DNA from: an uncultured Enterobacteriaceae bacterium
Lineage (GTDB): Bacteria > Myxococcota_A > UBA796 > SXON01
DNA: 64,000 nt
Assembly (NCBI GenBank): GCA_964457335.1
Contig: CAYWGD010000017.1
Span: forward strand, 11,069 to 75,068
Reading direction: 5' to 3'
Below, piece after piece: positions 2,810-46,801 of this stretch. The translations under genes were made by a program, and so were the position numbers. Position 1 is the stretch's first letter, and each line of letters starts with the position of its first letter. Below the pieces are notes generated by a model. The model saw only the letters and a program-made list of their open reading frames with translations, searched no databases and had not been told where the DNA came from.

Positions 2810-4981
2810 ATGCCCGATGCCTCCCCATACGGCGACACAGCGCTGATCCAGGACGTGGTTCAGCGCGTGCAGGAGTACGCGCCCGGCGCGGACGTCGGGC
2901 TCGTGCTGGAGGCCTACCAGTACGCCGCGCTCCGGCACAAGGGCCAGGTACGCAAGAACGGCGAGGACTACCTCGTCCATCCGCTGGCCGTCGCCAACAT
3001 CCTCGCGGGCCTCCACATGGACGTGGAGACCATCGCCACGGGCCTCCTCCACGACACGATGGAGGACACCCTCGCGACGAAGGAGGAGATCCAGGAGCGC
3101 TTCGGGAAGCCCGTCGCCGAGATGGTCGAGGGCGTCACGAAGCTCTCGAAGCTCTCCTACAAGGGGAAGCTCGAGGAGCAGGCGGAGAACTTCCGCAAGC
3201 TGGTGCTCGCCTTCGGGCGGGATCTGCGCGTCATCATCGTCAAGGTGGCCGACCGCCTCCACAACATGCGGACGCTCGAGCACCACCGGCCGGAGAAGCG
3301 GCAGGCCATCGCGCGGGAGACGCTCGACATCTACGCCCCGCTCGTGCACCGGCTCGGCCTCGAGCTGGTCAAGGCGGAGATGGAGGACCTCTGCTTCCGG
3401 TGGCTCCACCCGGAGGCCTGGACCGCGCTGAAGGAGCAGCTCGCCGAGGGCGAGGAGGAGCGCGACGTCTACGTGCGCGACACGATCGCGCTCATCCGCG
3501 ACACGCTGGCGCGCCACGGCATCCAGGCGGACGTGACCGGGCGGGTCAAGCACCTCTACAGCATCTACCGGAAGATGCAGAAGAGCGGGAAGCAGCTCGC
3601 GGACATCCACGACCTGCTCGCATTCCGCGTCATCGTGCCCGACCGGGAGAGCTGCTACGTCGCGCTCGGCTTCGTGCACGCGCACTTCATCCCCGTGGCC
3701 CGGCGGATGAAGGACTACATCGCGGTCCCGAAGTCGAACGGCTACCAGTCGCTCCACACCACGATCGTGGGGCCCGACGGCCGCCAGATCGAGATCCAGA
3801 TCCGCACCGCGGCCATGCACCGCATCGCGGAGTCGGGCATCGCCGCGCACTGGCGCTACAAGAACGGGCGCCTCGCGGTCAGCAACGCCGAGCTCGAGGA
3901 GGTCGCGCGGCTGCGCGGCTTCATCGAGATGGCGCAGGACATCGAGGATCCGGCTGACTTCATGGAGGCCGCCCGGAGCGACCTCGGCGCCACGATCCAC
4001 GTGTTCACGCCGCAGCGGGACGTGATCCTGCTCCCCGAGCACGCGACCGCGCTCGACTTCGCGTACCACATCCACACCGAGGTCGGGAACCACTCCGTCG
4101 GCGCCAAGGTGAACGGCCGGCTCGTGCCGCTCCGCACGCCGCTCAAGCTCGGCGACACCATCGAGATCCTCACGAAGCCCGACGCGCACCCCTCGCGGGA
4201 CTGGCTCGGCTGGGCGTCGAGCCACCGCGCGCTCGAGAAGATCCGCAAGAAGCTGCGGGATATGCTCACCGACCACGGCGTCGCGATGGGCCGGGAGATC
4301 CTCGACGGGGCGCTCCGCAAGGTCGGCTCGAACCTCAAGCGCGAGCTGCAGGAGAAGGGCCTCTCCGAGCGGGTGAAGGAGGCCGGCTACAAGGACGTGG
4401 ACGCGCTCGCCATCGAGGTCGTCGCCGGGCGCGTGAGCCCCGCCGACGCCGCGCGCATCCTGCACCCGACGGAGCCCGAAGCGCCGCCGGTGCTGCCGCC
4501 GACCGGGCTCGCCGCGTGGCTCAACCGCGTCCGGAAGGCCAACGACAGCGCGATCATCGTGAACGGCGAGACCGACATCCTCGTCGACTACGCGCGCTGC
4601 TGCCGCCCGATGAAGGGCGAGGCCATCATCGGCTACATCACGCGCGGGCGCGGGCTCTCCGTGCACAAGGCCGACTGCGCCATGGTGAAGGGCCTCGACG
4701 CAGACCGCGTGGTGCCCGTGGACTGGGACGGCTCGGTCAAGACGCTCCACCAGGGCGTGCTCCGGCTCGTGTGCGACGACCGCCCCGGCATCCTCGCCGA
4801 GATCACCGGCACCTGCGCCTCCGCCAAGATCAACCTCTGGCGCGCCGACATGCGCACCACGGACGACGATCGCGCCGTGTGCGACCTCGGCATCGCGGTG
4901 CACGACGTCAACGAGCTCTCGCTCCTCATCAAGCGGCTCAAGCACCTCAAGGGCGTGGTGCAGGTGGAGCGCGCGGGGTAG
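2810..4981 (+). CDS. rel: Bifunctional (p)ppGpp synthetase/hydrolase (RelA/SpoT homologue)
   Basis: HD hydrolase motifs (HPLAVA, LLHDTMEDT); synthetase core (YRKMQ, FRVIV, NGYQSLHTT, IQIRT); TGS segment (HVFTPQRDV...GDTIEILT); C-terminal ACT-like region. Confidence 0.95.
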   Translation: MPDASPYGDTALIQDVVQRVQEYAPGADVGLVLEAYQYAALRHKGQVRKNGEDYLVHPLAVANILAGLHMDVETIATGLLHDTMEDTLATKEEIQERFGKPVAEMVEGVTKLSKLSYKGKLEEQAENFRKLVLAFGRDLRVIIVKVADRLHNMRTLEHHRPEKRQAIARETLDIYAPLVHRLGLELVKAEMEDLCFRWLHPEAWTALKEQLAEGEEERDVYVRDTIALIRDTLARHGIQADVTGRVKHLYSIYRKMQKSGKQLADIHDLLAFRVIVPDRESCYVALGFVHAHFIPVARRMKDYIAVPKSNGYQSLHTTIVGPDGRQIEIQIRTAAMHRIAESGIAAHWRYKNGRLAVSNAELEEVARLRGFIEMAQDIEDPADFMEAARSDLGATIHVFTPQRDVILLPEHATALDFAYHIHTEVGNHSVGAKVNGRLVPLRTPLKLGDTIEILTKPDAHPSRDWLGWASSHRALEKIRKKLRDMLTDHGVAMGREILDGALRKVGSNLKRELQEKGLSERVKEAGYKDVDALAIEVVAGRVSPADAARILHPTEPEAPPVLPPTGLAAWLNRVRKANDSAIIVNGETDILVDYARCCRPMKGEAIIGYITRGRGLSVHKADCAMVKGLDADRVVPVDWDGSVKTLHQGVLRLVCDDRPGILAEITGTCASAKINLWRADMRTTDDDRAVCDLGIAVHDVNELSLLIKRLKHLKGVVQVERAG

Positions 4982-5036
4982 CCCCGCCGACCGGGCTCGC
5001 CCTGTGCGGACGCCCGCCGGTCCTTAGGGGAAGAGT

Positions 5037-6767
5037 GTGGACCCCCCGCCAAACGGCGGCCGCCCCGGATCCCGCACCCTCGGGACGGTGCCGGCCGTGC
5101 TGCTCGTCGCGCTCGCCTACTGGATCGTCGCGAACGCAGGGCGCGTCCTCGCCAACTACGGCGTGGTCACCGCGGTGTGGCCGCCGACGGGCCTCGCGCT
5201 CGCGCTCCTGACGATCGGCGGCCTCCGGCTCTGGCCCGGGGTGTTCCTGGGCGTGGTCCTCGCCGTGGGCGTCGAGACGCCCCCCGCGCCGCTGCCGATC
5301 ACCTTGCCGCCGCTGGCCGTGCTCACGATGGCGGCGGGCAACACCGCGGAGGCCATGCTCGGGGCGATCATGCTGCGGAGCCTGGCCGGCTTCACCGGCT
5401 GCGTGGACACGGTGCGGAAGGCGCTCGCGCTGCTCTTCGTCCCGCTCGTGGCGTCGGTGGTGAGCGCGACCGTGGGCAACGTGACGCTGCTCGCGGTCGG
5501 GGGCACCACCCTCGAGACGCTCCCGAACACGTGGTGGACCTGGTGGGTGGGCAACGCGCTCGGCATCGTGTGCGTCGCGCCGTTCGTGTTCGCGGTGATG
5601 AGCCCGTGGACCTGCCCCCAGCAGCGGCGGTGGCGCCTGGAAGCGGCCGCGCTGGTGGGCTTCTCGGGCGCCACGGCCGCCTACGCCATGTTCGGGGCCT
5701 TCCCGAGCGCGCCGCGCGCGACCCGCGAGACCTGGCTCCTCTACCCCTACCTCGTCTGGGCCGCGATCCGATTCGGTCCACAGGCCGCCGCGACGGGCGT
5801 GTTCGTCGTGGGCGCCCTGGCGCTGGTCTCGACCGCGTGGCGCCTGGGCTCGTACGCGGACGCGACGATGGCGGACGCCGTCCTGCGCGTGCAGGTGTTC
5901 GTGGGGGTCGTGGCCGCGTCGATCGTGCTCCTGGCCGCGTTCGTGGCGGAGCGGTGGCGGGCCTACGCCGCGCTGTCGGTCCTCAACGACGGGCTCGAGG
6001 GGAAGGTCGCGGCGCGCACCGCGGAGCTGCAGCGGATCAACGAGCTGCTCACGTCCCGCAACGCCGAGCTGGCCGCCGCCAACGAGGAGCTCGACGGGTT
6101 TTCGTCCAAGGTGTCGCACGACCTGCGCGCGCCCGTCCGCGCGGTGAGCGGCTTCACGGAGGTCCTGCGCGCCCAGTACGGCGGGGCGCTGGGCGCGGAG
6201 GGGACCGCGCTGTTGGACCGGATCGCGCGCGCCGGCGTGCGCATGGCCTCCCTCATCGACGGGCTGCTCGAGATGTCGCGCGTCGGGCGCCGGGCCCTCG
6301 ACGTCGTGGAGGTGGACCCGAACCCGCTCGTGGCCGCGATCGTCGAAGACCTCGTCCCGACGGGGGACGTCGAGGTGCGCGTCGGCGCCCTGCCGCGCTG
6401 CCGGGCGGACGCCGTGATGCTCGACACGGTGTTCACGAACCTGCTGCAGAACGCCGTCAAGTACGGCCGCGGCGCCGAGCGGCCCCTGGTCGAGGTCGGC
6501 GGCGAGCGGGGTCCGGGCGTCGTCACCTACTGGGTGCGCGACAACGGCGTGGGCTTCGACATGAAGGACGTCGGCAAGCTGTTCCGCGCCTTCTCGCGCC
6601 TCCACGGGGCCCCGTTCGAGGGGAGCGGCGTGGGCCTCGCCACCGTGCGCCGGATCGTGGAGCTGCACGGGGGCCGCGTCTGGGCCCAGGGCGCCGTGGG
6701 CGAAGGGGCCACGTTCTCGTTCCAGCTCCCCGACGGGCCGGAACCCCCGGATGAGCGTCAGAAGTAG
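5037..6767 (+). CDS. Sensor histidine kinase with an N-terminal MASE1-like multi-pass membrane domain
   Basis: About 300 aa of hydrophobic helices, then a coiled coil. HisKA H-box FSSKVSHDLRAP; HATPase N/G boxes (NLLQNAVKY, DNGVGF, GSGVGLA). Confidence 0.85.
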   Translation: MDPPPNGGRPGSRTLGTVPAVLLVALAYWIVANAGRVLANYGVVTAVWPPTGLALALLTIGGLRLWPGVFLGVVLAVGVETPPAPLPITLPPLAVLTMAAGNTAEAMLGAIMLRSLAGFTGCVDTVRKALALLFVPLVASVVSATVGNVTLLAVGGTTLETLPNTWWTWWVGNALGIVCVAPFVFAVMSPWTCPQQRRWRLEAAALVGFSGATAAYAMFGAFPSAPRATRETWLLYPYLVWAAIRFGPQAAATGVFVVGALALVSTAWRLGSYADATMADAVLRVQVFVGVVAASIVLLAAFVAERWRAYAALSVLNDGLEGKVAARTAELQRINELLTSRNAELAAANEELDGFSSKVSHDLRAPVRAVSGFTEVLRAQYGGALGAEGTALLDRIARAGVRMASLIDGLLEMSRVGRRALDVVEVDPNPLVAAIVEDLVPTGDVEVRVGALPRCRADAVMLDTVFTNLLQNAVKYGRGAERPLVEVGGERGPGVVTYWVRDNGVGFDMKDVGKLFRAFSRLHGAPFEGSGVGLATVRRIVELHGGRVWAQGAVGEGATFSFQLPDGPEPPDERQK

Positions 6768-9550: not shown

Positions 9551-10965
9551 GGGTCGATCGTGTAGTCCGTTACGAACGTCCCGTCCGCGACGTGCCACAC
9601 CTCGATGGGCGCGGTCGTCTCCTCCGTGTCGGGGTCGTAGTCGAGCCGGCCGGACGCGCCGGTCACGTCGATCCCGCGGCCCTCGTCGAAGGTCGCGCGC
9701 ACCTGCGTCCAGTTGATCGGGTTGATGTCGATGGCGTCGCCGTCCGACACCCGGCGGAGGCCGCGGGCCACGCCGAGGCCCGAGATCGCGCCCTCGTTCG
9801 CGACCGACCAGGCCACGCCGTAGATCGCGAGCCACGCGGCGTCCCAGGTGTGGGCCGTGTACACCGAGTCCGACGCGCCGGCCGGGGCGTACTCGGCCGC
9901 GTAGGCGCCCGCGAAGAAGCCGTACACCGGCTGGTCCGTGCGCACCGACGGCGCGGTGCCCCGCACCTGGTCGAACAGGTCCGCGGCGGAGGCGGCGGCG
10001 TCGAGCACCTCCTGGTCCCGCGCGGTGTCGGTGAGGAAGATGCCGACGTCGGCGAGCTCGGCGTACTCGTGCGCCGTGTTGAGGAAGGCGACGATGTCCG
10101 CGGGCTCCGAGGAGATGAAGAGGATCTCCGTGGGCGGCGTCTCGCGCACGGCGGCGACGGCGAGGTCCCGCTCGGTGTCGTCGGAGAAGGGGAGGAGGGT
10201 GATCTGGCCGCCGCCCGTGCGGTAGGCCGTGTCGAAGACGCTCGCGAGGCCGCCCCCGTAGGAGCCCGTCCGGTAGATCACCGACACGTCGTAGACCTCG
10301 CGGTCGAGGATGTCGCCCGCGACCACCTCGCCCTGGAGCGAGTCGGGGGGCGCGGTGCGCCAGAAGAGGCCGGGCGACTCGTCGGTCTTCGTGAGGCCGT
10401 CGATCGAGGAGAGCGCGGGGCTCGTGGCGGACGGCGAGAGGACCACGGTCCCCGCGGGTGAGGCGGCGTAGTACGCGGCCTCGGCCGTGCCGGAGGTGGC
10501 GGGCCCGATGATCGCGGGCACTCCGAGCGTGTCCGCGAGGAAGCTCGCGCCGCGCGCGGCGGCGTCCTCGAGCGAGAGGTCGTCGTAGGCGTAGTCGACC
10601 GCGTAGTCGCACTCGACGAGCACGTACGGGCGGCCGTCGAGGCCGGACACGTCGTCCACCTGCATGAACGCGAGGCGCGCCGCCTGCGTCTCCGGCGTGT
10701 CGGAGCCGTGGTCGAACAGGGAGCCGAGCACGACGGCGTCGCGGTAGTTCTCGGGGCGCGAGAAGAGGTCCTCGGGCCAGGTGGTCTCGCAGCGCGGCTC
10801 GACCTCGACCTCGGCGCAGAGGCCTTCGTCGCCGCAGGTCCAGCCGAAGCCGAAGGCATCGCGGCACTCGGCGTGCGTCTCGCAGGGGGTGTAGTCCGAG
10901 GTCCCGAGCGAGCAGCCGGCCAACAGCGCTGCCAGGGCGGCGGGGACGAGGAGACGCGGCGTCAC
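9547..10965 (-). CDS. Lipoprotein, type-I periplasmic substrate-binding protein (Leu/Ile/Val-binding, Peripla_BP_6-like). No cognate ABC permease or ATPase is adjacent.
   Basis: Internal GTG start (GTGA overlap with the stop at 10962). Lipobox LAGC, then a Cys-rich N-terminal knot, then a LivJ-like body (VLGSLF...GVPAIIGPATSG...VYDVSVIYRTGSYGGG). Confidence 0.8.
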   Translation of the reverse strand: MTPRLLVPAALAALLAGCSLGTSDYTPCETHAECRDAFGFGWTCGDEGLCAEVEVEPRCETTWPEDLFSRPENYRDAVVLGSLFDHGSDTPETQAARLAFMQVDDVSGLDGRPYVLVECDYAVDYAYDDLSLEDAAARGASFLADTLGVPAIIGPATSGTAEAAYYAASPAGTVVLSPSATSPALSSIDGLTKTDESPGLFWRTAPPDSLQGEVVAGDILDREVYDVSVIYRTGSYGGGLASVFDTAYRTGGGQITLLPFSDDTERDLAVAAVRETPPTEILFISSEPADIVAFLNTAHEYAELADVGIFLTDTARDQEVLDAAASAADLFDQVRGTAPSVRTDQPVYGFFAGAYAAEYAPAGASDSVYTAHTWDAAWLAIYGVAWSVANEGAISGLGVARGLRRVSDGDAIDINPINWTQVRATFDEGRGIDVTGASGRLDYDPDTEETTAPIEVWHVADGTFVTDYTIDP

Positions 10966-11795
10966 GGGAGCACGCCCCCGAGGGTGACGATCCCGCCGCC
11001 GCCCCCCACGCTCAGCCCCACCTGCACGGGCTTCTCGCCGGGGAGGAGCGCCGTGACGAGGCCGCCCGCGAGCGCGGCGGCGCCGACGCCGAAGGCGATG
11101 TCCGCCACGAGCGCGTCGGTGCGCTCCCGGGCGAGGGCCGCGCCGGCGCTCTCCGGGCAGCGCCGTGTGTCCCCGGCGTCGACGCAGAGCGCGTCGGCGT
11201 CGGCCCGGGCGTCGAGCGCGCGGAGCCCGAAGACGGTGCCGGTCACCGCGCCGCCGCCGGCGACGCCGAAGAGCACGATCGGGAGCACCGGGACCGCCCG
11301 CTCGCGCGGCGTGGTCGCGGTCGACGCGGTGGACGCGGCGACCGGGGCCGGGGCGGCGGCCACCGGGGTCGCGGGCTCCGCGGGTGCGGGCGTCGGGGCG
11401 ACGACCGGGGCCCCGGCGCCCGCGGCCGCGGTGCCGGCCTCGAGCTCCGCGAGGCGCCGCTCGATGCTGCGGATGCGCCGCTCGAGCGTGTCCCGCTCCT
11501 CGGCGGGCGCGAACGCCCGGTAGCGGCTCAACAGCTCCATCGCCTCGTCCCAGCGCGCGAGGCGCTCGGCCGCGTTCGCGAGGTTGAAGAGCAGGAGCGG
11601 CCGCCCGGACAGGCGCCAGGCCTCCGTCCACGCGACCATGGCGTCCTCGTGGCGGCCCTCCGCGTAGAGCAGCGCGCCGTTCTGGAACAGCTCGCGGGCG
11701 CGCGCGTCGTCCGCGGCCGTCACGGCGGCGGGGTCGGGGGCGGGCGGGAGCGGGGCGGCGCGGGCGAGCGCGAGGAGCACGAGCAGCGGGAGCAT
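10962..11795 (-). CDS. Secreted TPR-like protein with a Pro/Ala linker and C-terminal hydrophobic segments
   Basis: Signal peptide, then TPR-like helices (LFQNGALLYAEGRHEDAMVAWTEAWRL...), a coiled coil (RRIRSIERRLAELEAG), and two hydrophobic stretches near the C-terminus. Confidence 0.7.
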   Translation of the reverse strand: MLPLLVLLALARAAPLPPAPDPAAVTAADDARARELFQNGALLYAEGRHEDAMVAWTEAWRLSGRPLLLFNLANAAERLARWDEAMELLSRYRAFAPAEERDTLERRIRSIERRLAELEAGTAAAGAGAPVVAPTPAPAEPATPVAAAPAPVAASTASTATTPRERAVPVLPIVLFGVAGGGAVTGTVFGLRALDARADADALCVDAGDTRRCPESAGAALARERTDALVADIAFGVGAAALAGGLVTALLPGEKPVQVGLSVGGGGGIVTLGGVLP

Positions 11796-36954: not shown

Positions 36955-38405
36955 ATGCGGTTCGCGCGCAAGCTCGCCCTCGCGCTCTGGCTGGGCGTGT
37001 GCCTCATCTACGTCGCCAACGCGGCGCAGCGCGTGGTGGTGGAGGTGCGGTCGTTCGAGGCCGACATGCGTCGCGACCACGAGGTCATGGGGCGGGGGCT
37101 CGCGCCGGCCACGGTCCTGATCTGGACCGCGGAGGGCCAGCAGCGCGCGATCGCCGTGGTCGAGCAGACCAACCGCAACGAGAGCCGCATCACGATCCGA
37201 TGGGTCGACCTCGCGGCGCCGGCCGGCCACCCCGACCGGCCCGCGGCCCCGGCCTCGGTCCTCGGGGCGGTTGCCGACGGCGCGACGGTCAGCTGGGCGG
37301 ACCGCCTCGGCGCCAACACGCTCCACACCTACGTCCCGCTGCGCGTCGAGGGCGTGTGGCGCGGCGCGTTGGAGTTCACGGAGTCCCTCGACGCCGAGCA
37401 GGCCTACATCCGGACGAGTATCAAGCGCATGCTCGTCACGACGGCCGGCATGGCCCTCGTGTCCGGCGCGCTCACGCTGTTCCTCGGCATCCGCTTCGTC
37501 GGGCGGCCGATCCGGCAGCTCGTGGAGAAGGCGCGGCGGGTCGGCGCCGGGGACTTCGGGGGCGCGCTCGAGCTCGAGCAGGCCGACGAGATCGGCGAGC
37601 TCGCGCGGGAGATGAACCTCATGTCGGACCGCCTGTCGGACGCGCGCGGGCAGCTCGAGGCGGAGACGGCCGCGCGCATCCAGGCGATGGAGCACCTGCG
37701 GCACGCGGACCGGCTCATGACGGTCGGGCGGCTCTCCTCGGGGCTCGCCCACGAGATCGGCACGCCGCTCAACGTCATCACCCAGCGGGCCAAGATGGTC
37801 GCGCGCGGGGAGGTGGACGGCGAGGAGGCCCGCTCGAACGCGCGGATCATCGCGGAGCAGAGCGAGCGCATCACCCACATCGTGCGGCAGCTCTTGGACT
37901 TCTCGCGGCGGCGGCCGCCGGAGCCCGCGCCGGTCGACCTCGTGGGGGTGGTGGAGCGGGTGTTCCTCCTCCTGACGCCGCTCGCGCGCAACCTGCGCGT
38001 GCGCCTCGAGCTCGGCGACCGCCCTGAGGGGGTGGTGCGCGCCTCGGCCGACCCCGTGCAGATCCAGCAGGTGTGCACCAACCTCGTGCTCAACGCGGTG
38101 CAGGCGATGGCGTCGGGCGGCGTCGTGACGGTGTCGTTCGCCCGGGAGCGCCGCGCGCGCGGCGCCGATCCCGCGCGGGACTGGGTGGTCGTCGACGTGC
38201 GGGACGAGGGGCCGGGCATCGACGCCGCGCACCTGCCGCACCTGTTCGATCCCTTCTTCACGACGAAGGGCATCGGCGAGGGCACGGGCCTCGGGCTCTC
38301 GGTCGCGTGGGGCATCGTCACGGAGCACGGCGGCTGGATCGAGGTGGAGAGCGGGCCGGGCGGCGGCGCGCGGTTCCGGGTGTTCCTGCCGGAAGCGGAG
38401 GGCTG

Positions 38406-38406
<1 letters not shown>
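36955..38406 (+). CDS. Sensor histidine kinase (2 TM, HAMP, HisKA, HATPase)
   Basis: [23 protein letters not shown]...[12 protein letters not shown]; H-box [12 protein letters not shown]; G boxes DEGPGI and GTGLGLS. Confidence 0.85.
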
Positions 38407-39794
<1,388 letters not shown>

Positions 39795-39798
39795 CCCG

Positions 39799-40296
39799 CT
39801 ACACGACCGAGGCCCCGGCCGCCGCCACCGCCGCCAGGAAGCCGGGCACGTCGGCCGGGGTGACGTAGACGCGCCGCTCCCCACGCACCCACACGCCCTC
39901 GTAGGCCGTGGCGGCGGCGTGGTAGCGCCCCTCGGCGTCCACGAAGAGCCCGAGGCAGAACGGCGGGACCGCCGTGCCGCTCAGCTTCCACCCGGAGAGC
40001 GGGCCGGTCGACACGCGCGCGCCGCGGAGCGGGACCCGCACGGCCGCGAAGTGCGCGGGGACGACGAGCACGTCGCCCTCGACGCGGTAGCGGAGCGGGC
40101 GGCGGGCCAGGGTCGCCACCCACGCGATCAGGAGGCAGATGCCGGCCGAGGTCGCGAGGTAGAGCACGAGCGACGATCGCGGCCCCGTGGCGACCACCGG
40201 CAACAGCGCGAGGAACTGGACCGCGAACAGCCCCCCGAGCGCGGCGAACAGCGCGTAGGCCGACTTCGGGAGGGGGACGGAGGGGAACTCGGGCAT
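39799..40296 (-). CDS. Small membrane protein (two TM helices plus a soluble C-terminal domain, possibly bacterial PH-like)
   Basis: Two hydrophobic helices followed by RRPLRYRVEGDVLVVP.... The domain assignment is tentative. Confidence 0.5.
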   Translation of the reverse strand: MPEFPSVPLPKSAYALFAALGGLFAVQFLALLPVVATGPRSSLVLYLATSAGICLLIAWVATLARRPLRYRVEGDVLVVPAHFAAVRVPLRGARVSTGPLSGWKLSGTAVPPFCLGLFVDAEGRYHAAATAYEGVWVRGERRVYVTPADVPGFLAAVAAAGASVV

Positions 40297-40470
40297 CGGG
40301 GGGGTGGACCTCCCTATCCGCTTGAGCCCGGCGTCGGTTAGCTCCGCCGCATGCTGCTCGTCCTGACTGCGTCCGTGCTGGCGGTGGCGCGGTCAGCGGG
40401 CCCAGAGCCTTGCGACGCTCCGTCTTGACCCCCGGATGCCCGTTCGTGTAGAACCCGGGCTCCGGAGTAC

Positions 40471-41739
40471 ATGATGTCTATGGAAACCCTCAAGGCCAAG
40501 CTGCTGGCGATTCAGGCCCGCATCCCGATGGTGCGAGGCCGCGGTGAGGAGGCCACGAAGCAGGCGCTCGTGCTGCCGATGCTCGATGCCCTTGGCTATG
40601 ACATCTGGAACCCGCACGAGGTCTGCCCCGAGTTCGAGGCGGACTTCGCCGTGAAGAAGCAGGGCCAGAAGGAGAAGGTTGACCTTGCGATCTTGCTCAA
40701 CGGAGAGGCCCGGGCGTTCCTGGAGGTGAAGCCGGTCGACGAGCCCCTTGATGGCCACCAGGGGCAGCTCGCCCGCTACTTCAACGGCGCCCCGACGGTC
40801 TCGTTGGGGGTGCTCACCAACGGCGTCGAGTACCGCTTCTACACAGACACGGGGGAGCCCAACATGCTCGACGCGGCACCCTTCTTCGTGTTGCGCCTCG
40901 ACAGCATCGATCTGGGGCTCGACGTTCTGGCGCGGTTCCACCGCTCGGCGTTCTCGCCCAGCGCGATCCGCGAGTACGCTACGGAGCTCAACTACACCGC
41001 CCGCATGACCGCGCTGCTCCGCCAAGAGCTCGACCTCCGGAACCGAGAGCCCTCGGAGGCGCTGGTCCGGTGGGTGCTCGGATCAGAGGGCATGTACGAC
41101 GGGCGCGTCACCGCCGGCGTGGTCGAGCGCTTCCGCCCCATCGTGAAGAACGCTGTGCAGATCGTGTTGCGAGACATCGTGCGGCGCTCCGTCGCCGCGC
41201 TCGACGAAGGAGTGACCGCTCCCCAGGTCGAGAGCGCGCCGCCGGCCCTGCAGCCCGCGATCCAGGCGTCGGCGACGGCGACGCCTGCGGAGGCGGCGCC
41301 CGACGGGGGCGGCAAGGTGATCGTGACCACGGAGGCCGAGCTTGCTGCGTACGCCATCCTGCGGGAGCAATTTCAGAGCAGCGCCCTCGCGGGCGCGCGC
41401 ATCTACGACGCGACAGCGAAGAAGGACGTCGCCATCGAGATCGCGCATAAGGACACAACCGGGTACTTCGGCGTGTACTTCAACAAGCCTGCCTGGTGGT
41501 TCGCGCGCCTCCAGATGGACAGCAAGCAGCCGTGGGTGGCCTTCAACATCGACGCTGCCTCGGCGCCGTCACTGCTCCCCTCGGGCTTCTCGCTCCTCCC
41601 ACCGAGCGCGTTCGCTGACGTTCGGGTGGCCATCCGTAGCCCGGACGACCTCCACGCATTGAATCGGATCGCTTTCGCCGCCATGAGCCGCACGCTCGAG
41701 GAGCGAAACCGCGGTCGGGGAGAGGGCGACGGCGCGTAG
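40471..41739 (+). CDS. Stand-alone PD-(D/E)xK nuclease-fold protein of the type I restriction HsdR N-terminal (HSDR_N_2) type, with an uncharacterised C-terminal half
   Basis: EATKQALVLPMLDALGYD, then D-x11-E-x-K (VDLAILLNGEARAFLEVKP), then LTNGVEYRFY. There is no helicase or methylase partner. Third codon positions are visibly less G/C-biased than in flanking genes. Confidence 0.75.
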   Translation: MMSMETLKAKLLAIQARIPMVRGRGEEATKQALVLPMLDALGYDIWNPHEVCPEFEADFAVKKQGQKEKVDLAILLNGEARAFLEVKPVDEPLDGHQGQLARYFNGAPTVSLGVLTNGVEYRFYTDTGEPNMLDAAPFFVLRLDSIDLGLDVLARFHRSAFSPSAIREYATELNYTARMTALLRQELDLRNREPSEALVRWVLGSEGMYDGRVTAGVVERFRPIVKNAVQIVLRDIVRRSVAALDEGVTAPQVESAPPALQPAIQASATATPAEAAPDGGGKVIVTTEAELAAYAILREQFQSSALAGARIYDATAKKDVAIEIAHKDTTGYFGVYFNKPAWWFARLQMDSKQPWVAFNIDAASAPSLLPSGFSLLPPSAFADVRVAIRSPDDLHALNRIAFAAMSRTLEERNRGRGEGDGA

Positions 41740-41817
41740 GACTTCGATCGCGCCCTCGTCCTATGGGCTCTCGTGCACGCGGGTCGGCTCACCACCGTTG
41801 TCCGCTCGGAGGCGTGA

Positions 41818-42384
41818 ATGGTTGATCGCCGAGGATTCCTGGTTGCCGCCGCCGTCGTCGGGATTGCTGGGCCTGCGTACGGCGGGAGTGACGACGGGAG
41901 CGCGCGAGCAGGTCGCGGAGCGGGAACGCTCCTTGTCCGGGTCCTGAACGCAGCGGCCGTCGCAGCCAGCGCCAGCCCCCTCAAGGCGAAGATCGGAGCC
42001 TTCCTGGGATTCGACCTGGAGCGCGAGGTACTCAATGAGATCGTCGATACCCTCCAGGACGAGCTGCGGGCCCGAGTGGGCCTCACCATCCAGGCGCGCG
42101 TCGTCGAGTCGCGGGAGGCCGCGTGGCGCCAGTGCGACCTGCAGGCGGGGCGGTTCGTGCCGGCAGGGGCCCCTGCCGGCGGCCAGGCGCTCGAGGTCGT
42201 GATCGAGGGGCTGCCGAGCGTGTCCGACGAGGACGCCGCGCTTCGGCCCTTCTTGCGCCGGCTCCTCGCCCCGTTCCACGAGTACGTGGCCGCCAACATC
42301 ATGGCGCAGCTCGCGGAGTACGGCGGCGAGGCGGTCTTCGGGTTCGAGGGCGGAGAGCCGAGGGGCCGCCGGGCGGAGCAATAG
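41818..42384 (+). CDS. Hypothetical protein with a twin-arginine-like signal
   Basis: MVDRRGFLVAAAVVGIAGPAYG. Atypical codons (gtt, gat, cga, gga, att, agt). No domain recognised. Confidence 0.5.
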   Translation: MVDRRGFLVAAAVVGIAGPAYGGSDDGSARAGRGAGTLLVRVLNAAAVAASASPLKAKIGAFLGFDLEREVLNEIVDTLQDELRARVGLTIQARVVESREAAWRQCDLQAGRFVPAGAPAGGQALEVVIEGLPSVSDEDAALRPFLRRLLAPFHEYVAANIMAQLAEYGGEAVFGFEGGEPRGRRAEQ

Positions 42385-42426
42385 GCGACCGGGCGAAGTC
42401 GGTTAAACGACTGGGCTTTTTTCCCC

Positions 42427-42467
42427 ACACCTTCCCGACCTGTACACCTTCGTCGTGTTGGTCGCGC
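42427..42467. repeat. Direct repeat DR-A: degenerate, frameshifted copy of the pyk 3' end (att-like)
   Basis: acaccttcccgacctgtacaccttcgtcgtgttggtcgcgc compared with 45349-45390: 39 of 42 positions identical, 2 substitutions and 1 deletion. Confidence 0.75.
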
Positions 42468-42482
42468 ATCGATTCAACGTCG

Positions 42483-42514
42483 GGTATTGCGGGCGGTATC
42501 AGTGTCGGTATCCG
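42483..42514 (+). repeat. Three phased GGTAT-N-N-G repeats just inside the left islet end
   Basis: GGTATTGcgggcGGTATCAGtgtcGGTATCCG, with repeat starts at 42483, 42495 and 42507 (exact 12-bp phasing). Confidence 0.45.
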
Positions 42515-42653
42515 CGGAAGTGCTCGTTCCCCGGACCCCGGCGAGGACCACATCCTCCTCCTCGAACAGACGCGACGCGGATCAGCGCCCCCTGCTCGCA
42601 GCCGACGAGCGCGAGGGAGAATGCGAGGACCATCGGCCGCTCCGCGGGGAGGC

Positions 42654-43511
42654 TCATACGTCACCGGGTCGCGGGGATTCAGCAAGGCCGAGGGCGCCCC
42701 GGAGGATTGCGAGCCGCTCCGTCTCGGCCTTGGTGACCTTCCCGTCGGCGGCGGCCAGCGCGGCGAGCTCCCCGTACACCGCCTCTCGCGCCTCCCGCGG
42801 CGACTCGGAGATCGCTTTCGCGTAGTCCGTGGCGGAAAACACGTCGGGCGCGACGGTATCGAAGAGGCGGATCACAACGTCCCGGCTCACCATCGCGGGA
42901 ACCGTGTCGGGGAAGAAGCGCTCGACGATGCCGACGGCGGCGAGCCGCTCCTCGTCGCGCACCCGGCGATCGGCCAACGCGACGTACTTCAGCAGGTGCA
43001 CCACCACGGCGAGCTTTGCGCGCGCCTCGTCTCGCCCAGCTTGCTCCGCTGCCTCGGCCTTGAACTTGGCGGCCAGCCGCTCCCGCTCGGCCGCATCACG
43101 CTCGCGGGCCGCCTGCAGATGCTCCTCCTTCAGGCCGCCCGCTCGCTCCTGCTGTGCACCCCACTGGGCTTCCTGCGCCGCCGCAGCGCGCTGCGCCTCC
43201 GTCGCCGTCCGCTGGGTTTCCTCCGCGCGGCGCTCCGCCGCAACCTTCTCGCGCGCCGTGGCCGCGCGCTGCGCCTCAACGCGCCGTTCGGCCGCGGTCC
43301 GCTCGCGCTCGGCCAGCTCGCTCCACCCGCACGCTCGGCAGGTGAGCGGGTTGTCCTTGTAGCGGCGGGTGGGTCCGCCGCCCTTTCGCTGGTGGAGGTG
43401 GAACGCGCGCTGCTTCCCGCACTGAGGGCAGCGTACGGCCCCCGCGTTCATGCCGAGCAGGAGCACGAGCAGGAACAGAGGGACCCCCACCAGAATCCCG
43501 GACCAGTCCAC
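42654..43511 (-). CDS. Membrane-anchored Zn-ribbon, charged coiled-coil and TerB-like domain protein
   Basis: GTG start at 43511, which includes the TM helix ILVGVPLFLLVLLLG (alternative ATG at 43451). CPQCG-x19-CRACG. About 110 aa of ERR/AEA-rich helix. C-terminal TerB-like repeats (VALADRRVRDEERLAAV; AAADGKVTKAETERLAIL). Confidence 0.7.
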   Translation of the reverse strand: MDWSGILVGVPLFLLVLLLGMNAGAVRCPQCGKQRAFHLHQRKGGGPTRRYKDNPLTCRACGWSELAERERTAAERRVEAQRAATAREKVAAERRAEETQRTATEAQRAAAAQEAQWGAQQERAGGLKEEHLQAARERDAAERERLAAKFKAEAAEQAGRDEARAKLAVVVHLLKYVALADRRVRDEERLAAVGIVERFFPDTVPAMVSRDVVIRLFDTVAPDVFSATDYAKAISESPREAREAVYGELAALAAADGKVTKAETERLAILRGALGLAESPRPGDV

Positions 43512-43589
43512 GCGCGATCTCCCGTGCGGTCGTGATGCTCGCTCAACCCGCTCGCGCTGTGCAACCCCGCCCGGTGGACGGAGTCGTCC

Positions 43590-43931
43590 ATGCCGCCTCC
43601 CGCGCTCGGCCCAGTCCGCCCAACCGAGCCCGACGACGCCCCGCGGCTCGACTCCCTCGTCCGCGAGCTCGTGGACGCCTACCGCTCCCAGGCCGACGCC
43701 CAGGACCGGCGGCACCAGGAGCTCCTCGACTCGGTGCGCACGCGGGACGAGCAGTACGCAGCCCGGGAGGCGAAGCGGGACCAACAGCACAGCGCGCTCG
43801 TCGCGTCGGTGAACGGGCTGACGGTGAGTGTCGGGGCGCTCGCCGACAAGGTCCCCGGTCGGCGGGAGCTCTGGGCCGGGGCCCCGTCGGCGCGAGTCGG
43901 CGGGGCCTTCGTGCGTCGACGGCTGGCGTAG
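43590..43931 (+). CDS. Small coiled-coil hypothetical protein
   Basis: High G/C third positions in this frame. Divergent from the TerB gene with a 78-nt spacer. No domain recognised. Confidence 0.45.
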   Translation: MPPPALGPVRPTEPDDAPRLDSLVRELVDAYRSQADAQDRRHQELLDSVRTRDEQYAAREAKRDQQHSALVASVNGLTVSVGALADKVPGRRELWAGAPSARVGGAFVRRRLA

Positions 43932-43977
43932 AGTTTCGGGCGCGGACTTCATCGGAGGGGTACTTGATGCGTCTGTA

Positions 43978-44006
43978 GTAGAAAACCAGCGATAACGCGG
44001 TTTTAC
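43978..44006 (+). other. Imperfect hairpin in an unusually AT-rich spacer (possible terminator, operator or small RNA)
   Basis: GTAGAAAACCAGCG-ATAA-CGCGGTTTTAC: 11 bp with three single-nt bulges. The surrounding 130 nt (43932-44061) are the most AT-rich non-coding stretch I noticed. Confidence 0.3.
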
Positions 44007-44061
44007 GGTTGTTCGTGTAGCATCCAGCCAGCGGCGGATCTCAACCCCCCGTCGCCTTGGA

Positions 44062-44352
44062 GTGACCATGCTGAACGAGCTTCAGCCCATCCACGATTAC
44101 CTCGTCGCCTGCGGCTTCAGCGCCCGCGACCAGGGCGACCACCTGCTCGTCGTCCGCGCCGCAACGCTGGTGGACGACCACCACGCGTCCGGCCTCGTCC
44201 GCGTGGAGGTGCGCGAGGGCGCGCCGTGGGTCGAGGGCGCGACCTTGCCTGCCGAGGACGATCTCCTGAAGGTCCTCCGCGAGGCCTTTCCCGGCGTCCG
44301 GCGCGACGAGGCGCACTGGGACCTCTGCAGGGCCCCGCCGGCAGAGCGGTGA
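44062..44352 (+). CDS. Small acidic hypothetical protein
   Basis: GGAG 8 nt upstream of the ATG and high G/C third positions. Convergent with the NDT/TIR-like gene. Confidence 0.5.
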   Translation: MTMLNELQPIHDYLVACGFSARDQGDHLLVVRAATLVDDHHASGLVRVEVREGAPWVEGATLPAEDDLLKVLREAFPGVRRDEAHWDLCRAPPAER

Positions 44353-44437
44353 GGACGCCGGGCTTGCGCTTGTGGGCGACCGCCGCGGTAAGCCAACCCT
44401 CGGCCGGCAGACGCTGCCCCTCCTAGGCCACCTGCCG

Positions 44438-45157
44438 CTACTCCGCGGCTTCCTCGCCCGTCTCTCCCGTGCCGTCCTTCGGGAGCTGCTCGTACAGGGG
44501 CCCAGGAGGCGACGGTGGGGCATCGGCGGGACGGACCAGGTAGTAGCGCGTTGCCTTGCGCGCCCCCGTGGTGCGGAGGACCCCGGCCGCGGCCAGGGGG
44601 GCCACGACGAGCTGCGCCACGGGCACGCCCACCTGGAGAATCTGGGCGATCGCCTGCATCGTCAGCCCGTCGTCGGTGGTCTCCATGAACGCGCGGAACT
44701 GGCGGCGGAGCTCGTCGAGGTGCTGCTCGATCGAGACGACCTGCGTTCGGCGCGGGTACCGCTGCTCGATGAGCGTGGCGAGCTTGCGGCCGAGCTCGTC
44801 GTAGGAGGCGTACTCGATGCGGTCCAGGCCCCGGAGGTCGGAGGGAACCTCCTTGATCTCCGTCTTCTCGGGGTTCAGGCAGATGTACCAGCTGTCGCTG
44901 TGGGCCATGGCGAAGCCCAGTTCCAGCGTCACGTTGGGGTTCCAGCCGGAGATGTCGAACAGCGAGAAGTCAGACGACCTGATGTAGCTGATGATCTTCT
45001 GCATGATGTGCATGTTCGTGATCTTCTCGTCGGCGAAGATGAACCGCACGTCGTACTGCTTCTCGAGGTCACTGAAGACCCGCCTGTAGTCGGCTTTCGC
45101 GTAGGTCTTGTAGGAGTAGGCAACGAAGACCTGCTTCTTGAGCGGCATGACAGACAT
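44438..45157 (-). CDS. Nucleoside 2-deoxyribosyltransferase/TIR-like (flavodoxin-fold) domain fused to a C-terminal winged-helix domain
   Basis: Start at M55 of ORF 44438..45319 (alternative M58 at 45148). Strand 1 is KQVFVAYSY. The motif SDFSLFDISGWNPNVTLELGFAMAHSDSWYICL matches the aD-x-v-x-a-D-x-s-G...N/D-x-G/N-T/V-x-x-E-I/L-G-Y/F-A signature of the NDT-like fold. The C-terminus (LTMQAIAQILQVGVPVAQLVVAPLAAAGVLRTTGARKATRYYL) looks like a winged helix. Confidence 0.7.
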   Translation of the reverse strand: MSVMPLKKQVFVAYSYKTYAKADYRRVFSDLEKQYDVRFIFADEKITNMHIMQKIISYIRSSDFSLFDISGWNPNVTLELGFAMAHSDSWYICLNPEKTEIKEVPSDLRGLDRIEYASYDELGRKLATLIEQRYPRRTQVVSIEQHLDELRRQFRAFMETTDDGLTMQAIAQILQVGVPVAQLVVAPLAAAGVLRTTGARKATRYYLVRPADAPPSPPGPLYEQLPKDGTGETGEEAAE

Positions 45158-45243
45158 GCGCCGTTGATTACGCGACGCGAGCGCCCGGAGCAAGCGGGTG
45201 CTCGGCCGCAGATCCCCGGGCGCGCTCCCCGTGCCAGCCCGCC

Positions 45244-45333
45244 CCGGTATCAGAAGTATCAGAAGCGCCCGGAAACCCCCTGATACCGGCGGGTACCAGC
45301 GCAGGACCGGATCGTTCACGATCCGCTGATAAG
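45244..45333. promoter_or_regulatory. Repeat cluster inside the right islet end and upstream of the NDT/TIR-like gene
   Basis: A perfect 10-bp inverted repeat CCGGTATCAG (45244-45253) / CTGATACCGG (45280-45289). A tandem GTATCAGAA x2 (45247, 45256). A palindrome GGATCGttcaCGATCC (45309-45324). CTGATAAG at 45326-45333. Confidence 0.45.
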
Positions 45334-45346
45334 CGTGGTTTTCGGC

Positions 45347-46801
45347 CTACACCTTCCCCACCGTGTACACCTTCATCGTGTTGGTCGCGCCCCGCATCGG
45401 CGTGTTCCCCGCGAGCGCGACGACCTCCTGCCCGCGCGAGATGAGCCCGCGGTCGAGGAGGATGGACTCGCCGAGGGCGATGAGCTCGTCGGTGGACGCC
45501 ACGGTGGGCGCGCGGACGGGCGTCACGCCCCACGCGAGCGCGAGGCGGTCGTAGGTGGTCTCGTTCGGCGTGAGCGCGAAGATCGGGCCCGGGGGGCGCG
45601 ACTTCGAGGCGTAGAGCGCGGTGGCGCCCGACCAGGTGAAGACCACGAGCGGCCGCGGGATCTCGCGGACCGCGTAGCAGGCGGAGCGCACCACGGTGTG
45701 CGACGGGCCCGCGAGCACGGAGACCTCCTCGAACGGCTGGCGCATCCAGCGGCTCGACTCGACCTCGCGCGCGATGCGGTCCATCGTCTCGACCGCCTTG
45801 ATGGGGTACCGCCCGCTCGCCGTCTCGCCGGAGAGCATGATGGCGTCGGTGCCGTCGACGATCGCGTTGGCCACGTCGGTGGCCTCGGCGCGCGTGGGGC
45901 GGGGGCTCCGCTCCATGGAGTCAAGCATCTGCGTGGCCGTGATGACGAGCACGCCCGCCCGGTTGGCCGCCGCGATGAGCTCCTTCTGGATGACGGGGAC
46001 GCGCTCCAGGCTCATCTCCACGCCCAGGTCTCCGCGCGCGACCATGATCCCCTCGACCACGCCGAGGATCTCCTGGATGTTCGCGACGGCCTGCGGCATC
46101 TCGATCTTCGCGATGATGGGCAGGTCGGGGACCTCGAGCCGGCGCAGGTGCTCCCGAAGCGTGAGCACGTCGGTGGCCTCGCGCACGAACGAGAGCGCGA
46201 CGTAGTCCACGCCGGCGCGCACCCCGACCTCGAGGTCCGCGATGTCCTGCTCGGTGAGGCAGGGCGCGCTGACGTTCACGCCCGGGAAGTTCATGCCCTT
46301 GTGGTTGCCGAGCGGGCCGCCGTCCTCGATGCGGATGTCGACCTCGGCGGGCGAGACGCTCCGGCGCACCTCGGTCACGTGGCCGGAGAGCGCGCCGTCG
46401 GCGAACAGCACGAGGTCGCCGGCCGTCACGTCGCCGGCCATGCCCGTGTAGGTGGTGCCGATGCGGTTGCCCGCCTGGACGTAGTCCTCGTCCATCACGA
46501 CGGTGAGGATGTCGCCCGTCTTGAGCTGGAGCGGCGTGGGGATGGTCCCCGTGCGGATCTTGGGGCCCTGGAGGTCGAGGAGGATGCCGGCCGGGCGGTC
46601 GAGGCGGGTGGCGCTGCGGCGCACGCGCGCGACGAACTCGCGGATGGCCTCCGCGGTGGCGTGCGAGCAGTTGATGCGGAACACGTCCACCCCCGCGCCC
46701 AGGAGCGCGAGGATCTGGTCGGGTTCCCGCGAGGCGGGGCCGAGCGTGGCGACGATCTTGGTGCGGCGGGGGGGCATGCGTCCTCGTACGTTCCGGGTCA
46801 C
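45347..46801 (-). CDS. pyk: Pyruvate kinase
   Basis: RRTKIVATLGPAS, FRINCSH, IIAKIE, MVARGDLGVE and ATQMLDSM motifs. The more canonical start is M9 at 46777 (MPPRRTKIV). Confidence 0.95.
   Translation of the reverse strand: MTRNVRGRMPPRRTKIVATLGPASREPDQILALLGAGVDVFRINCSHATAEAIREFVARVRRSATRLDRPAGILLDLQGPKIRTGTIPTPLQLKTGDILTVVMDEDYVQAGNRIGTTYTGMAGDVTAGDLVLFADGALSGHVTEVRRSVSPAEVDIRIEDGGPLGNHKGMNFPGVNVSAPCLTEQDIADLEVGVRAGVDYVALSFVREATDVLTLREHLRRLEVPDLPIIAKIEMPQAVANIQEILGVVEGIMVARGDLGVEMSLERVPVIQKELIAAANRAGVLVITATQMLDSMERSPRPTRAEATDVANAIVDGTDAIMLSGETASGRYPIKAVETMDRIAREVESSRWMRQPFEEVSVLAGPSHTVVRSACYAVREIPRPLVVFTWSGATALYASKSRPPGPIFALTPNETTYDRLALAWGVTPVRAPTVASTDELIALGESILLDRGLISRGQEVVALAGNTPMRGATNTMKVYTVGKV
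45349..45390. repeat. Direct repeat DR-B: the functional 3' end of pyk (att-like)
   Basis: acaccttccccaccgtgtacaccttcatcgtgttggtcgcgc. Its antisense encodes ...ATNTMKVYTVGKV-stop. Confidence 0.75.

Follow-up and report, generated by a model that had tools for sequence, protein, structure and literature searches.

The effectors of type II retrons (Eco1/Ec86 and the Sen2/St85 class) combine an N-terminal domain resembling nucleoside 2-deoxyribosyltransferase (NDT) with a C-terminal winged helix (PMC7736814), and that of Retron-Eco1 has been characterized as an N-glycosidase that hydrolyses NAD(P)+ under the control of nucleic-acid binding (PMC12673091). In the single-gene system Swarozyc, a DUF4062 TIR-like domain with a catalytic Glu is followed by a helical stalk and a C-terminal helix-turn-helix (HTH) or winged auxiliary domain; neither the Glu nor this last domain, which recognises a phage portal protein, is dispensable for defence, which proceeds through NAD+ depletion and abortive infection (bioRxiv 10.64898/2026.05.01.722283). 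In Cap12 TIR-SAVED proteins of CBASS and in PycTIR, which are covered by the Pfam family PF10137, a catalytic TIR-like domain is joined to a separate SAVED or cyclic nucleotide monophosphate (cNMP)-binding sensor, and DNPH1 (Rcl) and NDT are metabolic enzymes that lack a DNA-binding domain and are not mobile genes. Here, we describe a gene whose 239-residue product joins a TIR/NDT-like domain to a winged helix; it lies in a stretch of 64,000 nucleotides (nt) of contig CAYWGD010000017.1 (hereafter, the window), from a genome deposited as an uncultured Enterobacteriaceae bacterium and placed by GTDB in Myxococcota_A. The first-pass annotation of the window had considered the fusion of an N-glycosidase fold with a DNA-binding domain unusual; the retron effectors (PMC7736814) and Swarozyc (bioRxiv 10.64898/2026.05.01.722283) are precedents for the layout itself, and we regard the family as a separate branch of the TIR-like effectors that stands alone, is uncharacterised and carries a winged-helix module.

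The explanation that we favour, with a probability of roughly 45%, is that the protein is a stand-alone N-glycosidase of the NADase type that acts as an abortive-infection effector and is switched on by its winged helix. The N-terminal domain would cleave the N-glycosidic bond of NAD(P)+ or a related nucleotide by means of Glu79, and the linker helices together with the winged helix would form a sensing and assembly module that holds the enzyme inactive. Once the winged-helix module has bound its trigger, be it foreign nucleic acid or a protein of the phage, the enzyme would be activated by oligomerisation, deplete NAD+ and abort the infection. NADase activity and a role in immunity are proposed because the nearest families, namely the Cap12 and PycTIR NADases, the Retron-Eco1 effector and Swarozyc, behave in this way. 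The proposal is supported by the family and fold of the N-terminal domain, the conservation of Glu79, the lack of a conserved partner gene, the patchy spread of the family, its mobility in cassettes, the presence of defence genes next to it at some loci, its modularity and the precedents with the same layout. A search of the literature on PF10137, COG4271 and TIR-HTH proteins yielded no description of this family.

The TIR/NDT-like domain and its conserved glutamate

The N-terminal domain belongs to the TIR/NDT superfamily, as the first-pass annotation had proposed from two segments, KQVFVAYSY and SDFSLFDISGWNPNVTLELGFAMAHSDSWYICL, both of which are present (residues 8-16 and 62-94, respectively). 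PF10137 (CAP12/Pycsar effector TIR) is the only Pfam family that the domain approaches: the match (24.4 bits, E 3e-5) lies just under the curated gathering cutoff of 24.7 bits and spans the whole model, residues 10-117 corresponding to model positions 2-118 of 119. Among 30 homologues, PF10137 is found in all (best E 3.1e-6) and TIR_2 in 7, and Nuc_deoxyrib_tr (PF05014) matches 4 weakly (best E 0.093); in a Pfam scan, the window protein itself has no match to PF05014 or PF15891 at E<=10. Two relatives, P0127 with 25.3 bits and P0235 with 39.3 bits, exceed the curated PF10137 cutoff, and P0235 also barely clears that of PF05014. For the window protein, PADLOC yields weak matches to TIR-effector models only (CBASS-type TIR, PycTIR and PDC-S35). 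Matches to FecR_C at residues 24-51 in 21 of the 30 members were dismissed as spurious, all being below the cutoff and located within the TIR-like fold.

In an AlphaFold2 model built with 30 homologues (mean predicted local distance difference test score, pLDDT, 82.7), the domain is a five-stranded alpha/beta fold composed of beta1 (residues 8-14), alphaA (21-35), beta2 (37-43), alphaB (49-61), beta3 (64-68), alphaC (74-84), beta4 (90-94) and beta5 (112-115). When this model is compared with the Protein Data Bank (PDB) by Foldseek, human DNPH1/Rcl ranks first (E 1.7e-4, target-normalised TM-score 0.72), and the top 50 matches consist mostly of DNPH1 chains (TM-score up to 0.73 on the target), with a SPARTA TIR also listed; profile searches linking the domain sequence to solved structures returned nothing significant. 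The domain is located at the TIR/NDT boundary, with the sequence profiles favouring TIR and the nearest solved fold being of the NDT type, and it is best explained as a divergent branch of the PF10137 "CAP12/Pycsar TIR" type. Given this position, knowledge of its chemistry, be it NAD+ hydrolysis, formation of cyclic ADP-ribose or deglycosylation of nucleotides or nucleic acids, would help to map the evolution of substrate choice.

The Glu of the LELG motif, which the first-pass annotation had taken to be an intact candidate nucleophile, is Glu79. It is present in 119 of 120 close homologues and is kept in all 130 recognisable motif copies among the 148 best representatives, clustered at 50% identity, that were retrieved by a profile search for distant relatives (1.84 billion representatives searched; 1931 clusters at E<=1e-3, 111 at E<=1e-30). 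In the model, Glu79 lies in alphaC, the helix after beta3, which is the site of the catalytic Glu in TIR and NDT enzymes. In an hhalign alignment to DNPH1, Glu79 of Glu-Leu-Gly falls on the nucleophile Glu104 of Y-E-L-G and Asp68 on Glu93 (not significant, E 0.16). Across the 120 homologues, W72, N73, P74, N75, T77 and G81 of the surrounding signature and P105, D107, G110, D112 and R113 of a second motif are invariant or nearly so, and the same holds for Y14, Y16, D23, D43, T47, N48, K54, D68, W90, T99 and Y116. The mean identity is 76% in the N-terminal domain, compared with 42% in the linker and 45% in the winged helix. Assignment to an unrelated family and lack of conservation of the Glu were the two results that the annotation had named as refuting its proposal, and neither occurred. 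The sole exception among the close homologues is P0049 (locus L001, 8001-8654, and loci L002 and L011; two independent assemblies), in which Gly replaces the candidate catalytic Glu (NVTLGLG) and which may be an inactivated or decoy copy.

The likeness to the PF10137 systems, which provide the best profile match with coverage of the whole model, extends to the N-V-x-x-E-L-G and P-S-D-L-x-G regions inside the matched stretch, the conserved Glu in the helix after beta3, and the combination of a catalytic TIR-like domain with a separate sensor domain in one polypeptide. The sensor, however, is a winged helix here rather than a SAVED or cNMP-binding domain, and neither a cyclase (CD-NTase or pyrimidine cyclase) nor another signal-generating gene adjoins the gene in 35 genomic loci, nor is a cyclase found in the Pfam-annotated contexts. 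A second-messenger trigger is therefore unlikely.

The structural resemblance to DNPH1 raises the alternative of a housekeeping or salvage enzyme, that is, a DNPH1- or NDT-like nucleotide N-hydrolase or deoxyribosyltransferase whose winged helix would only autoregulate its expression. Besides the top Foldseek ranks, this alternative draws on the weak PF05014 matches in 4 of the 30 homologues, with P0235 just past the cutoff, and on one distant plasmid relative annotated as a nucleoside 2-deoxyribosyltransferase. The sequence profiles, however, favour the TIR clan (PF10137, TIR_2) over NDT, and the identity to DNPH1 and NDT is 12-18%. A Gly-rich loop after beta1 that binds the 5'-phosphate is a defining feature of DNPH1 and NDT; the loop of DNPH1 (G-S-I-R-G-G) is absent here, and Y-S-Y-K-T-Y-A-K is found instead. 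A rare and patchy distribution and carriage in integron cassettes are untypical of salvage enzymes, the gene is never found beside nucleotide-metabolism genes in the 35 loci, and no operator is shared by the family. Altogether, we consider a salvage function improbable.

Many TIR domains are adaptors, and the protein could accordingly be a non-catalytic TIR-type scaffold that serves protein assembly only, which would agree with the natural Glu-to-Gly change in P0049 and with the very high surface conservation, as this could reflect multiple protein interfaces. Against such a role, which appears very improbable, stand the near-invariance of the Glu and of a dozen surrounding polar residues and the lack of a conserved partner gene with which an assembly could be formed.

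Winged helix, exchanged modules and upstream repeats

The C-terminal domain is a canonical winged helix with three helices and two strands (H2 167-174, H3 178-190, wing strands 194-197 and 204-207), as had been expected from the sequence in the first-pass annotation. When modelled alone, it is predicted confidently (pLDDT 89.4), and its structural neighbours identified by Foldseek are MarR, ArsR, Fur, Z-alpha, Hop2 and ribosomal eS25, none with E<1e-3. Weak profile matches to ArsR-type PDB chains were also obtained, and for HTH_24 the Pfam scan gave matches in 15 of the 30 homologues and none in the window protein. Hydrophobic residues are unusually prominent in the putative recognition helix (consensus V-x-V-A-Q-L-x-V-x-P-L). 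The preceding linker contains a conserved hinge, Q132-R-Y-P-[KR]-R137, and the Pro/Glu-rich tail that follows the winged helix is not conserved and, judging from the model, probably disordered. In four homologues of 315-344 amino acids (P0006, P0030, P0080 and P0011), an extra C-terminal extension of about 90 residues (…LNEKEAAVLALL…HLEEIGA…ANSWARNSLRKL…GIY) resembles, by eye, a second winged helix.

The retron type II effectors share with this protein an NDT-like N-terminal domain and, at the C-terminus, a winged helix, and differ from it in their genetic setting: neither a reverse transcriptase nor msr/msd is found beside the gene in any locus, no retron chain is among the Foldseek top 50, and the gene travels alone as a cassette. 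Membership in a retron was rejected on the grounds that no reverse transcriptase is encoded near the gene, that no PADLOC retron model applies and that an Rfam scan of 43800-45600 found nothing. Swarozyc shares the one-gene layout with a TIR-like domain, a stalk and a C-terminal winged domain; its TIR-like family is a different one, with no DUF4062 match in the window protein at E<=10 or, for the 30 homologues, among the 25 families hit most often, and the ligand of its auxiliary domain is a phage portal protein.

Relatives without the winged helix keep the motifs W-N-P-N-V-x-x-E-x-G and V-P-[AS]-D-x-R-G-x-[DE] and carry other modules. In P0174, the winged helix is replaced by transmembrane helices; P0268 contains two TIR-like copies and S1 RNA-binding domains; P0235 has a tetratricopeptide repeat (TPR)-like N-terminus and tandem TIR-like copies; and P0186, P0212 and P0191 contain domains of 200-250 amino acids of no known family. 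The enzyme-like domain is thus the constant part and the appended module the variable one, as would be expected of an effector joined to a sensor, and swapping of this kind is typical of immune proteins built in that way.

These partners also bear on the possibility that the enzyme is an N-glycosidase or ADP-ribosyltransferase directed at nucleic acids, with the winged helix (or S1 domains, in relatives) targeting it to DNA or RNA bases such as the modified bases of phages. Nucleic-acid binding is a property of two fusion partners (the winged HTH, and S1 in P0268) and of all structural neighbours of the winged helix; the closest solved fold, DNPH1, hydrolyses 5-hydroxymethyl-dUMP; and ADP-ribosylation of DNA has been considered as a possible activity of the Retron-Eco1 effector (PMC12673091). 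The other fusion partners, that is, the transmembrane helices and the TPR-like region, do not bind nucleic acids, and the Gly-rich phosphate loop of DNPH1 is missing, FVAYSYKTY being found here in place of YFCGSIRGG. We know of no member of the TIR or NDT families that acts as a DNA glycosylase, and find this possibility quite unlikely.

The first-pass annotation had further connected the winged helix with GTATCAG repeats and suggested autoregulation. The repeats exist: three copies are found upstream of the gene within 40 nt, two of them direct (45247-45253 and 45256-45262) and one inverted (45280-45286), inside a perfect inverted repeat with 10-nt arms (45244-45253 and 45280-45289), and the window contains 4 copies in total compared with 1.3 expected. 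The RNA of the intergenic region between the pyruvate kinase gene, pyk, and the gene (45158-45346) forms three hairpins, one of which is the GTATCAG inverted repeat, that are more stable than those of shuffled sequences (z = -2.7); this region has no Rfam match and no U-tract, and scans for sigma-70 promoters and intrinsic terminators found none. From the sequence, the inverted repeat is a possible operator or RNA hairpin with a putative tie to the gene, and the hairpins may be a pyk terminator or a regulatory element. A shared operator was sought upstream of 30 homologues and rejected: neither perfect inverted repeats (8 nt or longer) nor clustered triples of 6- or 7-mers are commoner there than in control windows. 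The GTATCAG repeats are specific to this window, and with no repeat or palindrome common to the 30 upstream regions, autoregulation through them is unsupported by the comparison.

The same data weigh on the alternative of a one-component transcription factor, in which the TIR-like domain would sense a nucleotide or NAD(H), functioning much as Rex or receiver domains do, and an operator, for instance the GTATCAG repeats, would be bound by the winged helix. A flavodoxin-like domain followed by an HTH is the layout of response regulators, and Foldseek lists FixJ and RcsB over both domains; the local repeat and inverted repeat upstream in the window would provide an operator, and some neighbours belong to central carbon or redox metabolism (pyk in the window; citrate synthase at L003; a hydrogenase/complex-I operon at L007; and iron-containing alcohol dehydrogenase and aldehyde dehydrogenase genes at L001). 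On the other hand, the comparisons yield neither a conserved target gene or neighbour nor an upstream motif common to the 30 homologues, and one would not expect a regulator that lacks a target to be spread by itself in an integron cassette. The N-terminal domain, which is far more conserved than the HTH (76% versus 45%), retains the complete catalytic-type motif and is also found without an HTH, and polar and basic residues are scarce in the recognition helix. A role as a transcription factor is thus unlikely.

Distribution, cassettes and genomic contexts

The family is rare and patchy, being found in more than 10 bacterial phyla and one archaeal metagenome-assembled genome (MAG), of Thermoplasmata. 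The 35 loci come from Myxococcota, Gemmatimonadota, Pseudomonadota, Verrucomicrobiota, Acidobacteriota, Desulfobacterota, Spirochaetota, Chloroflexota, Bacillota, Planctomycetota and Actinomycetota. When open reading frames (ORFs) within +/-4.5 kb of the gene were compared by all-against-all BLAST across the 35 genome loci, a conserved partner gene was rejected: apart from the gene and its antisense frames, nothing recurs but a tyrosine recombinase, which is present in 4 loci and has Phage_integrase and SAM_4 domains, as is typical of IntI/Xer. Eleven contexts annotated with Pfam are all unlike each other.

In three genomes, the gene is a one-gene integron cassette, defined as a single ORF between attC sites (R'' RYYYAAC ... 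R' GTTRRRY, with internal complementarity) and with an IntI-type integrase nearby: L024 (5893-6703), L020 (5876-6667) and L022 (2570-7065), which represent two Xanthomonadales-type genomes and one MAG labelled as a delta proteobacterium. At L024, where three attC copies are spaced by 892 and 755 nt, one attC (CCTAAC...GTTAGGC) ends 27 nt ahead of the start codon and the stop codon lies inside the next, in its R'' box; at L020, attC sites directly flank the gene; and L022 has 117-nt attC sites and a divergent IntI-like integrase nearby. The 5' leaders of L020 and L022 (CACTCACAGGGGAGATCACCA) match except for a 1-nt difference just before the ATG. No attC site was found in the window, and the window copy was accordingly rejected as an integron cassette. 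The lack of a partner gene and the occurrence as a lone integron cassette indicate a functionally self-contained unit, which needs no companion gene to work or, at the least, to travel. Chromosomal integrons reportedly have cassettes that are rich in anti-phage systems (bioRxiv 10.1101/2024.07.02.601686).

Several loci contain defence or mobility genes near the gene. L008 encodes ThsB_TIR with SLATT, a type I restriction-modification system and Mrr; L006, a methyl-directed restriction enzyme, a resolvase and a TIR_2 protein located 1.8 kb downstream (10502-11113); L044, an HNH restriction-like gene and PDC-S64; L005, ParE and DUF4145; and L034, a fusion of TIR_2 with an Xre-type HTH about 0.5 kb upstream (4635-5492). 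TIR-HTH fusions seem to recur in these islands.

A number of observations weigh against an abortive-infection effector. Most contexts show no recognisable defence island, and around the window gene no recognised defence system was found, PADLOC yielding only an RtcR-like match to an NtrC-type regulator; in the window, the gene has those for pyruvate kinase, a TerB protein and a two-component system around it. At L003 (6857-10826, a Limisphaerales MAG; also L004 and L014), the gene shares its strand with a citrate-synthase gene on one side and ATP-grasp/CoA-ligase (citrate-lyase-like) genes on the other, from which spacers of only 7 and 4 nt separate it, in eight contigs from NCBI and Logan assemblies; this homologue appears, from the arrangement, to be co-transcribed with genes of central metabolism, which would be odd for a suicide enzyme. 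The family is nearly absent from phages, and plasmids carry only distant relatives of its N-terminal domain. The window protein stays just below the PF10137 cutoff, one natural variant, P0049, has Gly instead of the Glu, and an N-terminal domain that is 76% identical across phyla is conserved far above what is usual for immune effectors.

Phages and plasmids were also rejected as the origin of the gene: there is no phage match, with only 2 of 2.9 million viral contigs carrying the family, and sequenced plasmids hold only the distant N-domain relatives mentioned above, at 28-32% identity.

A bolder form of the abortive-infection proposal, which we see as doubtful, is that of a minimal integron-borne immune system, in which a protein of about 220 amino acids would sense foreign nucleic acid through its winged helix (S1 in sister architectures), assemble on the sensed nucleic acid into an active TIR-like N-glycosidase, and either collapse NAD+ or attack the bound bases. 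If so, it would be a nucleic-acid-gated TIR enzyme that operates without a second messenger, a retron or a partner protein. If the abortive-infection prediction itself holds, the protein would be among the smallest TIR-type immune effectors and a model for how a winged-helix sensor, again independent of these components, could switch a TIR/NDT active site. The one-gene cassette, being a natural proof of functional autonomy, offers a simple test construct. The gene is a good candidate for a minimal defence gene and could be tested cheaply.

The reading frame and its surroundings

The ORF is a real coding gene, given its G+C content at third codon positions (GC3), which falls within the range of the genome's genes (0.80-0.99), and its homologue clusters at E<=1e-3, which show 55-67% identity across phyla over 84-97% of the protein length (Table 1). 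Public labels of family members include "hypothetical", "predicted nucleotide-binding protein" and "ArsR family regulator". The public gene call P0001 starts at Met4 (45148), three codons further downstream, and the alignment of homologues favours neither start; a longer ORF reaching 45319 was rejected, the alignment beginning only at about Lys7. The N-terminal half has an overall G+C content of 0.59, which is low because of codon positions 1-2 (0.41), that is, of the amino-acid composition. The first-pass annotation erred in assigning to this gene the lowest GC3 in the window, as the 188-aa ORF (0.85) and the TerB gene are lower. Recent horizontal transfer into this genome was rejected, because a GC3 of 0.93 shows the gene to be largely host-adapted, with the caveat that the stretch 38.0-45.3 kb as a whole is somewhat below the flanking core genes.

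Table 1. Coordinates of the gene, its parts and neighbouring features in the window
Feature	Position	Strand	Basis or remark
Complete coding sequence, 239 aa + stop	44438-45157	-	Translation; GC3 0.93; 529 homologue clusters
TIR/NDT-like flavodoxin-type domain, residues 8-118	44804-45136	-	PF10137 match, AlphaFold2 model, Foldseek, conservation
Signature loop and helix W72-N-P-N-V-T-L-E79-L-G81	44915-44944	-	Invariant residues; kept in differently fused relatives
Glu79 codon, candidate catalytic residue	44921-44923	-	Conserved 119/120 and 130/130
Second conserved motif P105-S-D-L-R-G-L-D-R113	44819-44845	-	Within the stretch matched to the PF10137 model end
Two linker/stalk helices, residues 119-133 and 143-160	44678-44803	-	DSSP on the model; 42% mean identity
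Winged-helix domain, residues 161-210	44528-44677	-	Models; Foldseek; HTH_24 in homologues
Pro/Glu-rich tail, residues 211-239	44441-44527	-	pLDDT 50-55; missing or different in homologues
Upstream element between pyk stop and start codon	45244-45289	.	GTATCAG x3 in 10-nt perfect inverted repeat, CCGGTATCAG N26 CTGATACCGG
Histidine kinase gene	36955-38406		With NtrC-type partner, border of the low-GC3 stretch
165-aa ORF	39799-40296		GC3 0.99
HSDR_N-only protein, 422 aa	40471-41739
TerB-domain protein, 471 aa	42654-44069	-	Lowest GC3 of the neighbourhood (0.80)
pyk	45347-46801		Border of the low-GC3 stretch
SAP and VRR-NUC ORF, 650 aa	46503-48455	+	FAN1-like nuclease

The stretch in question, about 7 kb long, is bounded by the histidine kinase/NtrC-type pair and pyk, with the gene at its edge. 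Most of its called genes have a GC3 of 0.80-0.93, compared with 0.96-0.99 in flanking core genes, the exception being a 165-aa ORF with a core-like value. This composition suggests that 38000-45330 is a small, older acquired island. The protein with the lowest GC3 consists of Ala/Glu/Arg-rich repeats, a hydrophobic segment, a zinc-ribbon-like CxxC...CxxC segment and the TerB domain at its C-terminus, and the stretch further contains an HSDR_N-only protein, an NtrC-type regulator, a 188-aa protein with a Tat-like signal and a 96-aa ORF.

On the other side of pyk and divergent from it, an ORF encodes a protein with SAP and VRR-NUC domains. Because its listed start overlaps the 5' end of pyk by about 300 nt, the true start is probably located further downstream.

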